Shown here: piece after piece, positions 1,570 to 63,315 of the stretch
Position numbering within the stretch: the first letter of the stretch is position 1
Layout of the letters: each line of letters starts with the position of its first letter
Assembly (NCBI GenBank): GCA_963921275.4
Contig: OZ001293.3
Coordinates: 2,208,001-2,272,000, forward strand
Origin: an uncultured Hormoscilla sp.
GTDB lineage: Bacteria > Cyanobacteriota > Cyanobacteriia > Cyanobacteriales > Desertifilaceae
Length of the DNA stretch: 64,000 nt
Direction: 5' to 3'
Position numbers and translations under genes: made by a program
Notes under the pieces: model-generated
What the model saw: only the letters and a program-made list of their open reading frames with translations
Database searches by the model: none
Told to the model about the DNA's origin: nothing

Positions 1570-1820
1570 TGCGATCAAATGATTGTAGGGCATTTTTAAC
1601 AGCGGCAAAAACCCCCGATCAGTCTCCGATGCCTCTCGGGTAGTGCTCAGATGATGTCAATAGGGTTTCGCCGTGCGTCCGGGGGACATCAAGCTCCCGA
1701 GAGGCATCGAAAGGAGTTGGCTGTCTCAACAGGCTCATAGTGGGATACCAAGGAGAATCTTGACGATGCAGCATCCAGCGCCAGTCGGGGGCAAAGGGTA
1801 ACAATACCCAAACAGGTTCT
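1570..1820 (-). pseudogene. C-terminal fragment of a TPR-glycosyltransferase (GT9-like) gene
   Basis: PVWVLLPFAPDWRWMLHRQDSPWYPTM matches the GT modules at 3388-12062. Interrupted by a palindromic element at 1627-1709. Confidence 0.8.
1627..1709. repeat. Nested palindromic micro-element (outer CGATGCC...GGCATCG, inner TGATGTC...GACATCA at 1652-1691)
   Basis: Same 83-bp length and same inner-element offset (25 nt) as 38306-38388. Confidence 0.8.
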
Positions 1821-1840
1821 ATCCATCCTAGAGTGAGTCT

Positions 1841-2711
1841 GTGCGATTCGTTCTAGCCTAACGTGGTCAAACACGGAACGCTAGCCCGGTTTCATTAGCC
1901 GGGAACTCTGACCGCATGGGGGTTAAATTCCCCTCCCCCCAGGTACGGGGGTGACACCGGTCCTCGGTGCTACGAAGCGACATCATCGTGGTGCTAAGCG
2001 AGGACTCAAATGTAGGATAACTGGCAGCCTAAGCCGGTGACGCCGCTAGGAAAGATATCCAAGGTTAGAGCAGGCAAACATGTGTGCAAGCCTCGTTATA
2101 AGGAACCAGCGAAATAAGGCTATATGCGCTGGCCTAAAAAGGAAATGGTAGCTAGTATTAGTTTTAGACTCTGGCTAATATAGTACTCAAATAGCTCCCG
2201 GGGTATAGTGTGGACCTAAAGGTATCGCGAAATGTTGTTAGGGAACGAAGTAACCTCTCGTGTGCTGTCCATCAGGACAAGTTAGATGTTAAGCGCAAGC
2301 CACGGGGGGAGGGATGGCCCAAGAAGCGAATGCCCGGGGTAATTCCTGGGATAACATCTACAGTAATGTAGATGATGCTGGGTAGCCAGCGCTGACGTGG
2401 GTCGGTGATACTAGGAAGCTGCTGGAATGAGTAATCCTAAAAAGCCACGGAACTAATCCGAAACGCAAGTGGAGGATAAGGTATGGATAACTGGTAAAAC
2501 TGACTTGAAAATGGTGATACTAACGGTTATCAGAACAACCACTCGCTAAACCAGGAAAGGGAAGAAAAGACAGGCGGCAAGGGCTAACGGAAGTAATTTC
2601 TATTAAGTCTACCTATGAAAAGGGCCTAGTACCCAGTAGCCGGATGCGGTGAAAATCGCAAGTCCGGTTCCTCAAGGGAGGGTCGGGAAGCGATTCCCGG
2701 CTCGACCCCAT
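1841..2711 (+). mobile_element. ORF-less group IIB intron (type B, copy 2, complete, 871 bp)
   Basis: Starts GTGCG, ends ACCCCAT; domains V/VI at ~2637-2711. Loop AGACTC (2166-2171) is complementary to the 5' exon end GAGTCT. No RT ORF. Confidence 0.92.
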
Positions 2712-2994
2712 CCACCTCTGACAGCCAATTCAACAAATCTGACTGATTGGTAATCTCAAAAATTCTATCTGTTAACTCTTCTAAATCCGACAGTGACAAA
2801 CTTGCAATTTTGCTGTTGATTTCCGCTGTCATTTCACCAAATTTATTTTTGAGCAGGCGCATTGCTAAAGCGCTTGCTTCAGCAATGCGTCCTCGTTCAA
2901 TCCCTTGTTCAATCCCTTGTTCAATCCCTCGTTTAAGTCCTTGTTCCCAGGCTTCTTCACTGGCATATTTCATCCGTCCTATCTCATCTTGCAA
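2712..2994 (-). pseudogene. Duplicated 3' end of the Rpn gene (C-terminal domain only)
   Basis: Near-identical to 437-755 but with three fewer 12-bp GIEQ repeats. Confidence 0.85.
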
Positions 2995-3250
2995 GGCTTC
3001 GGCGCACTGGGGATTAACAGCGATCGCCTGTTAGTAATGGTAGATCGCCCGTTCGGGATCGTCCTGGGCCAGAAAAGCGACAGCCAAATTATTGTGAGCA
3101 TTAGCATTATCAGGTACCAGAGCCAGGTATTGTTGATAAAGGGCGATGGTTTCTGGGATGCGATCGAGAGCACAAGTCAGGGAGGCAAATTGCAGCAAAG
3201 CTTTAGCATTGTTTGGCAAGCTGAATAATTTAGCGATAAAGAGATTCCTC
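2995..3250 (-). pseudogene. TPR-repeat gene fragment
   Basis: ETIALYQQYLALVPDNANAHNNLAVA TPR motif with an in-frame stop; truncated by the duplicated Rpn segment. Confidence 0.7.
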
Positions 3251-3387
3251 AGTGTCTTCCGCAAGCTCTTGTCCAGAAGGACACAGCTGGCGCCCCCAGC
3301 GTAGCGCCATCAGCAAGCACCAGACACCGCTTTGTCAACCGTTCCGCCTAGTGATAACTGGTAGCAACTTGCAATTTCTCGGCTAAT

Positions 3388-60813: not shown

Positions 60814-61079
60814 ATAAGTTTTTATAGTTGCTACCACTTTTGATCGTAATTAGTCACCAGTATCACTTGACTGCGGTGTCTCCTGGGAGCTCGATGTCCC
60901 CCCTCCAGGAGACACGGCGGAGACATCGTAGTCGCACATGCATAGGAGACACCGCAGCGTGATATAAAATTATCACGCATGTCAAGTGATACTGCGTGCG
61001 GGTGTGGCAATGACACCCTGAGATTATAGCACGGCGGCAACCCGCAGAATTAAGGCGCTGTGTCTCCCGAAAGACACAG

Positions 61080-61740
61080 TAGGGGCGATGATAATGTCAA
61101 CTTTGTCGAAAACTTCTCGCAGGCGATCGCGATACCAGGTACGAAACCGCTGGGCTTGAATATACCAGCTAGCGGGAATGGGGGCGTGATGCAAAAGTCT
61201 GCTAAATGCAGATTAGCACCTTCACTAGCAGTAATTATATAAGCTGCCGCCCGGGCCCGGGCAGATCTTTGAACAGGTACGAAAATCAACCACCTGGACC
61301 TTTGACGCCCAAAGCAGTAGCTGCTCACTGCTGTCATGACTTCGGGTTGCGCGGCGAAAATATGAGTCTGCACTGCCATGGGAATACCTTCAATGCCCTG
61401 GGATGATTGGGGTAACACTGGGTTACCAGGGATATCTCTACAAACCGGATCTCTAGGATCTGGTCCTGGCAGCGCATCAAAAGCGGTAGCAATATCCCGG
61501 ACCGATCGGGCAAAGGGTCCAATCTGGTCTAAATTACTAGAAAGTAGCATAGTCCCAGCCCGTGACGGGCGTCCGTAGGTAGGTTTGAACCATAAATGCT
61601 GCACAAAGCAGCTGGGACGCGGATGGAACCATTAGTATCGGAACCAAGAGTCAGAGGTACTAACCCAGCTGCTACCGCCGCCGCCGTTCGCGTAGCGTGG
61701 CGTAAGCCATATTGCCCGAGGAACTTCCGGCTATTCTAGT
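61080..61740 (-). pseudogene. Amidase-signature enzyme (AtzE/GatA-like) remnant
   Basis: Reverse strand [43 protein letters not shown]; multiple frameshifts. Confidence 0.8.
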
Positions 61741-61744
61741 AAGT

Positions 61745-62150
61745 AGTCAGACAAAATTAATTACATAGTTTTCACCAAATTATTTGATATTTTTTTCAAC
61801 AGATGCAACTAATTTTTTCCAGCAAGAATAAGCATCTATTTCCAGCCATTCGTATTTAATAAACTGCCACAAAATTTCAATGAAATTAAACTGAGGGGAA
61901 TAAGTAGGGAGGAGAAAAAGTGTAATATTGCGTTCTTGCCATTCTTCAAGTTTATCTTTAATAGCATTACTAGTATGAACAAGCGATGATGCATGGTCTG
62001 CGACAATCACTGTCAGCTTTTCCATCTTCCTAGGGAAAAACGCATCAATACGAGCAATAACTACATCGGAATTAATACTTTGAGTATATCTATAAGATTC
62101 TAATTGATTGTGTCCATAATTCTCAATACATTTAATCTGCGACTACGACT
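61745..62150 (-). mobile_element. IS630-family transposase 3' remnant
   Basis: VIVADHAS...H, LFLLPTYSPQFNFIEILWQFIKYEW. Confidence 0.78.
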
Positions 62151-62399
62151 TAAGTCAATAGTCCGGACAATTTTGAGAATAATTTTTATAATTCACTGTT
62201 GTTAATATCCAGTCATCGTTATACATATGTAACACTCCTGGGATAGTCTCGGAGAGTCTTCTAGTCTTACTGATGGAAACAGTAGGCCATTTTTACAAAC
62301 CCCTTGCCAGGTTTTTGACCATTGATAACCACCATTTTCGTGGCTGTTAGCCGTTGTTAACTACACTCTCCCCCTCGTCGGTACTGCCATTTGTCAACC

Positions 62400-63315
62400 T
62401 AGCGCTGCGCGCACACGGCTACGCCTGCGCGATCGCACTACCCCGATGTGCTCTGCGCGCTCGATGTCCCTGGGGTGGTGCTTCTAGCGCTCCCGGGGGA
62501 TATTGTATTCGCTCTGCGCAGAGCACATCGCAGAGACATCGTTGTGCAATTGGGGTTACACTCCTTGCAGCGAACTGCTCGCTGCTGTGAGGCTAACCGA
62601 GATGTCTCCTGTGTGCCGTATGGACCCTGGGACAAGAGCACTGGCAGAGATATCGAAAAGTAAGAAGTGCATCGGACCACAGAAAAGAAGGGGAAGGTTT
62701 TATCGATGCTACAGGCTACGCTGGTAAGGTCGATAAAACTTTTCTCAGTCGCTTTCAGTTCCTTAAGACCCGCATTGGACGGCGTCTAGCAGGAGAGAGC
62801 GATTTCTTTTGGATATTGACAATAAGATGCGATCGCATTTCGGCAGAGGCGCCCTTGTTCCAGATTGAATTCATTTTCCGCTCGGGGGCGTCAGTTTACT
62901 GGGCTTGCCCATTGTCAGGCACCCTCACGACTAAGCAGGAGATTCTCATGTCGATGTCTCCTGTGTGCCGTATGGACCCTGGGACAAGAGTAAGGGGCAG
63001 TGATATCTTTCACGGCCAGTCCGGAAAGCCAAAACGGCAAGACAACAGTCAAGGGCCAGCAACCTGTGTCCCAAGACATGCATGAGATACTATCGTCTCA
63101 TGCATGTCTTGGGACACAGTCACGGAGTATAGTTTCGAATCTTGCCTTTTCTAAAGGCGCTTCACAGAGCGTATGCATGAACTTATTTATTTCCTTGGCT
63201 CCTCCAAGGAAAGATTAAGTCTCACAAAGATGTCTCCCCAACAGTTGTGCTTTTAGCGCGCTGCCGAAACGTGGGTAGTGCTCAACCGCGCTCCCACGTT
63301 TCGGCAACTCCAGGA
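62400..63315. repeat. Dense cluster of palindromic micro-elements
   Basis: Nested element at ~62445-62529; related units at 62601-62655 and 62952-63007; 24-bp-stem hairpin 63064-63119; hairpin ~63261-63308. Confidence 0.75.

Follow-up and report, generated by a model that had tools for sequence, protein, structure and literature searches.

Short hairpin units of a genus-restricted superfamily nest in each other's loops in the cyanobacterium Hormoscilla

The present study examined a 64,000-nucleotide (nt) stretch of DNA (hereafter the window; contig OZ001293.3, positions 2,208,001 to 2,272,000, corresponding to G000:C1:2208001-2272000) from an uncultured Hormoscilla sp., a sponge-symbiont cyanobacterium that record titles and taxonomy place in Gomontiellales (Gomontiellaceae) and not in Nostocales. 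The source genome (G000; 7.03 Mb in 7 contigs) hosts a superfamily of short hairpins that is real, abundant, and restricted to the genus. The loop of one of its families, family A, is a preferred landing site for other units, which enter at two fixed points, replace approximately 2 nt, and nearly always adopt the orientation of the host hairpin, giving rise to Russian-doll nests. We consider it probable that these hairpins are non-autonomous selfish micro-elements that constitute one genus-restricted superfamily, are moved in trans, and use the loop as their preferred landing site. The hairpins were noticed in an original prediction made from the letters of the window, which proposed a structure-guided mobile system that was possibly moved by an HUH/RAYT-type or RNA-mediated mechanism. 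None of these candidate mechanisms gained support.

Hairpin structure and nesting in loops

The commonest unit, read on the GCGCTAnTCGCAC strand, consists of 5'-TT, a 14-nt arm (typically CGATGTCTCCnGGG), A, a 13-nt loop core, TA, and the complementary arm, and the family-A loop reads A-GCGCTAnTCGCAC-TA. This loop is an asymmetric quasi-palindrome around a free base n and contains AGCGCT. Among the 302 exact loops in the genome, n was C in 108, A in 81, T in 73, and G in 40, and perfect adjacent arms of at least 8 bp were present in 132. AAAAG replaces TACCC on the 3' side in a frequent variant. The most frequent stem foot was CGATG (57 of 133 near-perfect copies), and CGGTG, CCGTG, and CTGTG ranked next. 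Since TT stood upstream of 49 of these 133 copies and the mirror AA downstream of 14, the unit is polar. The family-B loop, GGACGCACGGCGAAAAC (element strand), is carried on the same stem design. The 40-bp inner hairpin of the original prediction is the TGATG...CATCA-footed form of family B; a host arm followed by AGC or CGC preceded all 23 of the 23 TGATG-footed copies listed, and CGATG-footed copies of this family lay outside any host hairpin. A third loop type was found within one triple nest.

Filtering retained 344 family hairpins on the main contig (G+C content, 47.4%; HIP1 octamers numbered 9508 genome-wide). The loop carried an insert of one unit in 96 hairpins and of two or more units in 72, amounting to 168 of 344; 157 hairpins were simple and 19 carried 15-39 nt. 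As units cover approximately 0.2% of the contig, less than one case of nesting is expected by chance. At the first entry point, most CGATG-, TGATG-, and CGGTG-footed units were located between AGC and TAnTCGCAC, with GC replaced and a net gain of 43 nt; a variant of this point reads GG-TCGC-T followed by the unit. At the second entry point, CTGCG-, CTGTG-, and GAGGTG-footed units were located between the 5' arm and GCGCTA, with GA replaced and a net gain of 45 nt. The inner unit had the orientation of the host in 123 of 127 family-A inner loops (opposite in 4) and in 29 of 29 family-B inner loops. The fixed positions and this shared orientation point to sequence-specific, not purely structural, targeting. 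Many insertions were also located outside hairpins, and the structure-guided targeting that had been predicted was not borne out.

The 96 one-insert nests represented 91 distinct combinations of outer and inner units; therefore, they are not copies of one composite, and descent from a single 83-bp ancestor does not explain them. Homologous outer hairpins were simple at one locus and nested at another, or carried different inserts, which agrees with the earlier suggestion that the loop itself is a landing site. Paralogous outer units were simple in one copy and nested in the other in group 210 and also in group 266, the copies of which have an unusual TAACCGCAC loop in common. One outer unit carried different inserts in two paralogues in group 227, and the host repeat of group 207 was found in three states: empty, holding a simple unit in reverse orientation, and holding a nest in forward orientation. 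Similar differences were found between G000 and G002, one of four other species of the genus that were analyzed (G001-G004). In G002, a TGATG unit was added at site e83 within an inner loop that is intact in G000, and a 24-nt element was present at site e194 within another loop that is intact in G000. Two nests, including that at window 60871-60957 (site e96, one difference), were common to G000 and G002 and are, therefore, older than the split between these species.

In the window, GATGTC-N20-45-GACATC occurred 5 times (0.11 expected), a number reached in 0 of 100 dinucleotide shuffles. The loop GCGCTANTCGCAC occurred 15 times with 2 or fewer mismatches (3.17 expected; 4 exact), also a number reached in 0 of 100 shuffles. 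Hairpins at all six sites named in the original prediction read as claimed. The simple hairpins of the window are 44-46 bp in length. Two of these, at 33058-33103 and 42825-42870 (both on the forward strand), are family-A hairpins with 15 perfect pairs; the latter is located at the 5' edge of an open reading frame (ORF) for a leucine-rich repeat protein and matched the covariance model described below with 76 bits (E 2e-17). The third, at 47353-47397 (reverse strand), is a family-A unit of the AAAAG variant, the 45 nt of which are inserted in frame into a fragment of a protein-kinase-like ORF. A copy had been predicted at 47352-47396, and it exists. However, its perfect stem is just 11 bp, its 3' linker is AAAAG, and the empty site defines the inserted DNA as 47353-47397.

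Among the nests of the window, the composite at 1627-1709 (reverse strand) consists of an outer family-A hairpin (CGATGCCTCTCGGG...CCCGAGAGGCATCG), the loop of which is interrupted at 1652-1691 by a TGATG-footed hairpin of family B. Its junction, TAGTGC-TCAGA-insert-AGCT, was also found at G000:C1:1286138 and in G002 (site e83). The composite at 38305-38389 (reverse strand) has the same organization, with the TGATG-footed family-B unit at 38331-38370, and is in frame in a bioF-like gene (37808-39082, reverse strand). Contigs from four runs, probably of the source strain, were identical to window 34287-40397 and broke at repeats; they are mute on splicing and polymorphism. The nest at 62445-62529 (forward strand; outer unit CGATGTGCTCTGCGC...GCGCAGAGCACATCG) contains an inner family-A unit opposite to its host, which is the rare type genome-wide, and is flanked by more half-units. 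Two features were absent from the original prediction: the nest at 60871-60957 (forward strand), with an outer unit CTGCGGTGTCTCCT...AGGAGACACCGCAG and an inner CGATG unit at 60892-60928, and a half-element at 20412-20445 (forward strand) with an exact loop and an AAAAG-type 3' arm without a matching 5' arm.

A 24-nt repeat likewise uses the family-A loop; GCTA precedes 31-38 of its 217 copies. This repeat (core GCGCTGCGCGCAC; 217 copies with 3 or fewer mismatches) is present at window 4420, 10178, and 62402 and at G000:C1:4262908, 4643036, and 2303834, among other sites. It was missing at orthologous G002 sites, and 26 of its 217 copies were located between CGAT and CG. G002 has its own 22-nt element between CGA and TCG, which was polymorphic at 10 or more sites in 200 kb. 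These 22-24-nt elements resemble the small dispersed repeats (SDRs) of Nostoc, here outside Nostocaceae. A 23-nt GTTCCC..GGGAAC mini-hairpin had 127 matches and was polymorphic between species (e.g., G000:C1 1335800 and 4341322; G002 loci L012 and L013); it was often located directly 3' of TCGCAC in family-A loops, where other copies have AAAAG. Family-A units also entered another dispersed repeat, GCCCGCC-GGGGGTTCAAACCCC-CGGCTAATAGCTAAAGTCGGTTAAAACCGACT (e.g., G000:C1:4134084, 5029943, and 3926156), at one fixed point in both orientations. This repeat is tRNA-like, but was not called by ARAGORN, and tandem arrays of a 21-nt GAGGTTTTAAACCCCAACC sequence were found near other copies of it. We considered a tRNA variable arm for the ...CCGCC-TTCGGTG...CACCGA-GGGTTCAAACCCC contexts and rejected it: ARAGORN identified only normal tRNAs, and the context is another dispersed repeat.

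Distribution, covariation, and mobility

Exact loops numbered 302 in G000, 36, 110, 111, and 158 in G001-G004, respectively, and 0-1 in each of 26 genomes that represent 19 other genera in the same order; a reversed-pattern control also gave 0-1. The original prediction called for a covariance-model scan of the genome and its relatives. A covariance model (R1) was built from 22 copies, which were taken from the window and from named loci in other assemblies. It matched 150, 56, 141, 137, and 146 hairpins in the five genus genomes, with no more than 150 candidates scored per genome, and at E <=0.01 it matched none of the 26 other genomes. The family was, thus, detected in all five genus genomes and in none of the other 26. 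A 16-mer of the loop was also sought in a species-representative genome collection. Among the 80 listed of at least 94 matching stretches, arms were present only at loci titled Hormoscilla, and the rest were chance-like. The absence outside the genus rests on the covariance-model search and not on this collection scan. No match to the hairpins was found in Rfam 15 at the gathering score; the matches in the window were five group II intron hits, none of which were on hairpins. Literature searches did not yield a description of this hairpin family, and dispersed repeats are not mentioned in the main text of two Hormoscilla genome papers (PMC6520454 and PMC7313196).

The stems of the units covary. 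Across the 22 copies, 87.3% of helix cells were paired against 73.8% after shuffling (0 of 500 shuffles were as high), and 51 cells were changed on both sides against 17.9 expected. The covariation score was 0.427, compared with 0.18 in shuffled data and 0.05-0.12 with slid partners. Genome-wide, at least 12 of 15 pairs were formed by 183 of 449 loops with 1 or fewer mismatches, and by 432 of 8980 after dealing the 3' arms to other copies. Single stem positions showed two to four Watson-Crick types and few non-pairs; position 7, for example, was TA in 104 copies and CG in 61, with one non-pair. The 83 copies that were perfect over 14 bp represented 52 different stem haplotypes, and each of the four gametes was found between variable pairs. 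These pairs were associated almost randomly (30, 27, 12, and 12 for positions 7 and 12). Compensated changes were mostly transition pairs (TA to CG and AT to GC). G:T-type stem mismatches (32) did not exceed A:C-type mismatches (47; p = 0.11); therefore, the folding strand is not distinguishable. The compensatory nature of the stem changes, which had been predicted, was supported by pairing and covariation statistics that exceeded those of shuffles. The accompanying claim that stem sequence is not conserved was only partly correct: stems vary with compensation, but the foot and the overall pattern are shared and not free.

Alignments of filled and empty orthologous sites, which the original prediction had proposed, yielded clean empty sites. 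The unit at window 47353-47397 was exactly absent in G002, G003, and G004, which have the junction AGC-AGT without target duplication. The unit at window 33059-33102 was absent in G003, with CAGC on both sides as a 4-nt ambiguity; G002 and G004 have a different insert of 18-22 nt at this spot instead of the family-A unit. The composite at 38306-38388 was absent in G001-G004, which have 7 nt where G000 has 91 nt, a net gain of 84 nt. A BLAST comparison of 400 kb of G002 with G000 aligned 200,864 nt in 119 segments, with 95 indels of at least 18 nt; family inserts among these were 36, 45, 45, 126, and 132 nt in G000 and 44 nt in G002. Both flanks of 18 out of 280 outer units were placed in 1.2 Mb of G002, where 10 sites were filled and 8 were empty; 4 of the 8 empty sites lie in dispersed repeats and may be paralogues. 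Paralogous empty sites were also found in repeats that were 93-100% identical to the flanks (groups 69, 171, 30, 110, 3, and 138), and one unit had at least 10 empty paralogues. The units are, thus, mobile or recently mobile. No target duplication beyond a junction ambiguity of 0-4 nt was observed in any resolved event, at orthologous or paralogous sites, in agreement with the prediction of no consistent duplication. The base 3' of the insert was G or C in all of the approximately 14 resolved events; the base 5' was variable, and the left flank was not conserved. Single-unit inserts were 36, 44, 45, 46, and 47 nt in length, indicating slightly ragged ends, and approximately 2 target nt were often lost. 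At G000:C1:5996599, G000 has a nest and G002 has a simple unit with other stems. The different small inserts at this spot and at window 33059, each compared between orthologous positions, suggest insertion hot spots or replacement.

Units also occur within genes. Open frames of at least 200 codons spanned 82 of 355 units, compared with 49.6% of 3000 random positions; units are, thus, depleted in genes, but far from excluded. Sixteen of the 20 unit-spanning ORFs tested had Pfam domains (E <=1e-5), and the genes included those for DNA topoisomerase I (topA), phosphoglucomutase (pgm), an SNF2 helicase, ARC6/Ftn2, RodZ, and an Orn/Lys/Arg decarboxylase. The host of the composite at 38305-38389 is a bioF-like, 424-codon aminotransferase class I/II ORF (Aminotran_1_2, 1.5e-52), in which G000 has 30 residues immediately before the GTLSKA motif in place of the CQ present in the G002 orthologue. 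In-ORF units were on the coding strand in 52 cases and on the other strand in 15, and 22 of 42 simple in-ORF units were in one of the six frames, which encodes the peptide xS(M/V)SP(E/G)SA(T/S)RTTxETSx. Since units between co-directional genes were oriented with transcription in 27 cases and against it in 29, the bias within genes is best explained by selection on the peptide and not by a property of insertion.

These results bear on the possibility that the hairpins are host-function elements conserved in place, e.g., as terminators, as hairpins for RNA stability, or as sites to which a nucleoid or methylation-related protein binds. A conserved loop, a strongly covarying helix, and many intergenic copies are features that such elements would share. 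However, presence and absence differ between sister species and between near-identical paralogues, units nest, copies are in frame inside conserved enzymes, and orientation relative to genes is random. We regard a conserved host function as highly improbable.

Spread of the units and candidate mechanisms

We propose that the superfamily comprises hairpin units of approximately 40-47 nt, in which a common polar stem (5'-TT, a CGATG foot or a variant, and approximately 14 bp) would carry exchangeable loop modules. A putative trans-acting activity encoded outside the element would copy whole hairpins to new places, possibly through a single-stranded DNA hairpin intermediate; the ends would be slightly ragged, and the target site would not be duplicated. 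This activity may also recognize the loop. Stems would stay paired because only units that fold as a single-stranded hairpin spread and/or because the arms are corrected against each other, such that stem sequence would drift via compensated changes; selection of this type may be the source of covariation. Copies in genes may survive when they are read in frame as a hydrophilic Ser/Thr/Pro-rich loop.

Several observations weigh against this explanation. As no enzyme was found in the search described below, movement in trans is a conclusion by exclusion. Ragged ends and the loss of target nt are unusual for a site-specific transposase and fit insertion by repair or template switching equally well. 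Gain or loss at each single event is assigned by parsimony only. Subfamilies with three shared stem mismatches occurred at several loci and in sister genomes, which indicates that spread does not strictly require a perfect hairpin. The hairpin scan of G000 retained a few false positives (e.g., window 7391-7633), and genome-wide counts are, therefore, approximate. Moreover, shared units changed faster than, and differently from, their flanks. At site e82, a loop block changed from CTC to AAA between species with identical stems; TACCCA and AAAAGG (TACCC vs AAAAG) alternated at one site; and inverted arm segments were observed. Such block changes in loops and inverted arm segments hint at templated rewriting rather than simple copying and decay. 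Two further sites also differed between species: one arm was swapped for a consensus-type arm at site e83, which broke the pairing, and inner arms decayed differently in two species at site e18. In view of these in-place changes, an origin through repair or template switching remains in play.

According to this alternative, no dedicated enzyme is needed: host replication and repair would copy the units by template switching between hairpins at stalled forks or by break repair from another copy, and arm-to-arm templating would keep the stems perfect. Ragged ends, a target loss of approximately 2 nt, and junction ambiguities of 0-4 nt are consistent with this possibility, as are the loop block substitutions, the replaced arm at e83, the inverted arm segments, the different small inserts at the same site between species (window 33059 and G000:C1:5996599), and the near-random association of compensated stem states. 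However, fixed entry positions and 97% same orientation are difficult to explain without sequence-specific recognition. In addition, insertion sites outside hairpins have little in common with unit ends, and the family is abundant in one genus only, yet hairpins and forks are universal. We consider spread by host repair unlikely, although it is the least unlikely of the alternatives.

A search for an enzyme responsible for movement in trans found none among Y1/RAYT, PDDEXK_2, and group II intron candidates. The statement in the original prediction that the window lacks a transposase was incorrect: it contains a PDDEXK_2 ORF (354-1538, reverse strand), a DDE_Tnp_1 ORF (27760-28479), and the ends of five group II introns, none of which are linked to hairpins. 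The DDE_Tnp_1 ORF splits a glycoside hydrolase family 31 gene (26042-30280) into ORFs at 26042-27619 and 28601-30280. PDDEXK_2 genes numbered 15, 4, 1, 1, and 6 in the genus genomes and 2-10 in a genus without the family; they do not follow its distribution and were rejected as movers. One is located 90 nt from the composite at 1627. The DNA immediately upstream of the window is duplicated (97%) in window 1-1785, which holds this PDDEXK_2 ORF, one of the 15 matches in G000. For an autonomous partner, left and right halves separated by 300-5000 nt were sought in a crude scan; it gave 11 uninspected cases, and split halves on either side of an ORF were not recognized.

The hairpins may instead be units similar to repetitive extragenic palindromes (REPs) or REPINs that are moved by a RAYT or an IS200/IS605-type Y1 (HUH) transposase, the substrate of which would be single-stranded hairpins at the replication fork. 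The units are hairpin-shaped, polar, and without target duplication, and G000 has a RAYT-like Y1 ORF (G000:C1:241795-242139; 69 bits to Y1_Tnp), with similar-scoring ORFs in all four sister genomes. However, this gene is flanked on both sides by arrays of its own GTAG-tagged REP (GTAGCCCGCGCAGGCGGGC type; G000:C1:241639-242700), and no family-A loop was found within 1 kb of the ORF; a classical REP/RAYT system, thus, coexists with the hairpin family in G000. The only further Y1 match in G000 was marginal (23 bits). Y1 genes were present in 29 of 31 genomes, with or without the hairpin family, and, therefore, do not track it; the co-occurrence with RAYT genes that the original prediction had proposed to check was not found. 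The hairpin foot lacks a GTAG/CGTC tag, the left-flank target is not conserved, and no switch in unit orientation was seen along the main contig, where GC skew is weak and the origin is uncertain. A RAYT or Y1 mechanism appears to be distinctly unlikely.

RNA-mediated spread, in which hairpin RNAs are copied into DNA by one of the reverse transcriptases of the genome, was the other mechanism originally suggested. The genome is full of group II introns, and the predominance of transition pairs among compensated changes resembles RNA helices. However, the orientation of intergenic units between co-directional genes (27 same and 29 opposite), the lack of an excess of G:T-type over A:C-type mismatches, the lack of any intron insertion site related to hairpins, and the lack of a matching Rfam family argue against this mechanism, which we consider very unlikely. 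Group II introns were also rejected as movers. An ORF-less intron of approximately 880 nt has 139 full-length copies (up to approximately 245 partial matches) with approximately 99.5% identity, and the flanks of the full-length copies are diverse and unrelated to hairpins. This intron set is unusually large and represents a recent burst; the window has one intron at 1835-2714 and intron ends at 360-436, 31225-31301, 57004-57080, and 58575-58653.

Significance and comparison with known systems

How DNA that is too small to encode anything spreads has been an open question since the discovery of REPs and the SDRs of cyanobacteria. The genus Hormoscilla offers a rich natural experiment, with hundreds of units, half of which are nested, and five sister genomes that differ at many sites. 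The junction rules, namely, two loop entry points, one orientation, no target duplication, and 5'-TT polarity, are predictions that any enzyme or repair pathway must reproduce, and the one dominant reading frame in genes is a clear selective filter. We tentatively suggest a broader possibility, which is rather doubtful at present: the hairpins may be a self-targeting replicator superfamily, in which an undescribed mechanism or enzyme class reads the AGCGCT-containing loop as both a handle and a landing pad. Whole single-stranded hairpins would be inserted without target duplication, and stem and loop modules would reassort. If this is true, the same machinery would also underlie the unexplained smallest mobile elements of other cyanobacteria.

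The SDRs of Nostoc are the closest known kind. SDR1-8 of Nostoc punctiforme and its relatives are reportedly 21-27 nt in length and non-coding, and form a hairpin with compensatory changes. They are also said to differ in presence or absence between relatives and to insert into their own copies, with one family tied to the HIP1 octamer; RNA-mediated spread has reportedly been suggested for them. The hairpin family shares presence/absence at homologous sites and self-nesting with SDRs as reported, and the companion 22-24-nt elements, located here in CGATCG-type sites, would fit the reported SDR length. In contrast, the unit in Hormoscilla is a whole hairpin of 40-47 nt, the stem of which varies, whereas the loop is conserved and can be swapped, and single inserts at empty sites measured 36-47 nt; an SDR is reportedly a 21-27-nt module. 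Many copies of the hairpin family are also in frame in genes. The family is found in Gomontiellales, whereas a passage in a paper citing the SDR work states that no SDR-like repeat was found outside Nostocaceae.

REPs, BIMEs, and REPINs (Bertels and Rainey 2011, PMC3116915, and Di Nocera et al. 2013, PMC3733652) are similarly short, dispersed, non-autonomous hairpins with hundreds of copies and without target duplication, and other mobile DNA can use them as targets. However, the units in Hormoscilla end in TT-CGATG...CATC(G) and variants and have no GTAG/CGTC foot tag; GTAG is present solely inside the loop in reverse reading. The only RAYT-like gene in G000 is flanked by another REP family. 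Units are not confined to extragenic locations (82 of 355 in the open frames above), their stem sequence varies much more than that of a single REP family, and they nest in their own loops instead of forming alternating arrays. Palindromes derived from IS200/IS605 elements would be expected 3' of a fixed tetra- or pentanucleotide and in an orientation tied to replication. The left flanks of the approximately 14 resolved events were unconserved, the right flank was G or C in all of them, and no orientation switch was seen on a contig with weak GC skew.

[quoted passage not shown] They share with the hairpin family a non-autonomous nature, hairpin formation, and mobility demonstrated by filled and empty sites in related genomes (PMC3184786). 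However, the hairpin family is three- to tenfold smaller and lacks direct repeats and a matching IS. In contrast to classical DDE-type MITEs, exact empty sites revealed no target duplication, and the crude scan recognized no IS partner.

With respect to their location in genes, the units resemble the Rickettsia palindromic elements (RPEs). RPEs are reportedly palindromic selfish DNA of approximately 100-150 bp that is in frame in conserved genes and is read as an extra peptide segment. RPEs are not known to nest in their own loops. The hairpin family is, like RPEs, in frame in conserved protein-coding genes. It differs in that the unit is 45 nt (15 codons), the lineage is unrelated, and one frame (xSxSPESATRTTPETSx) is dominant (22 of 42). 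The in-frame copies in topA, pgm, bioF, and other conserved genes indicate that conserved proteins of a cyanobacterium are remodeled by such elements, similar to the effect of RPEs in Rickettsia.

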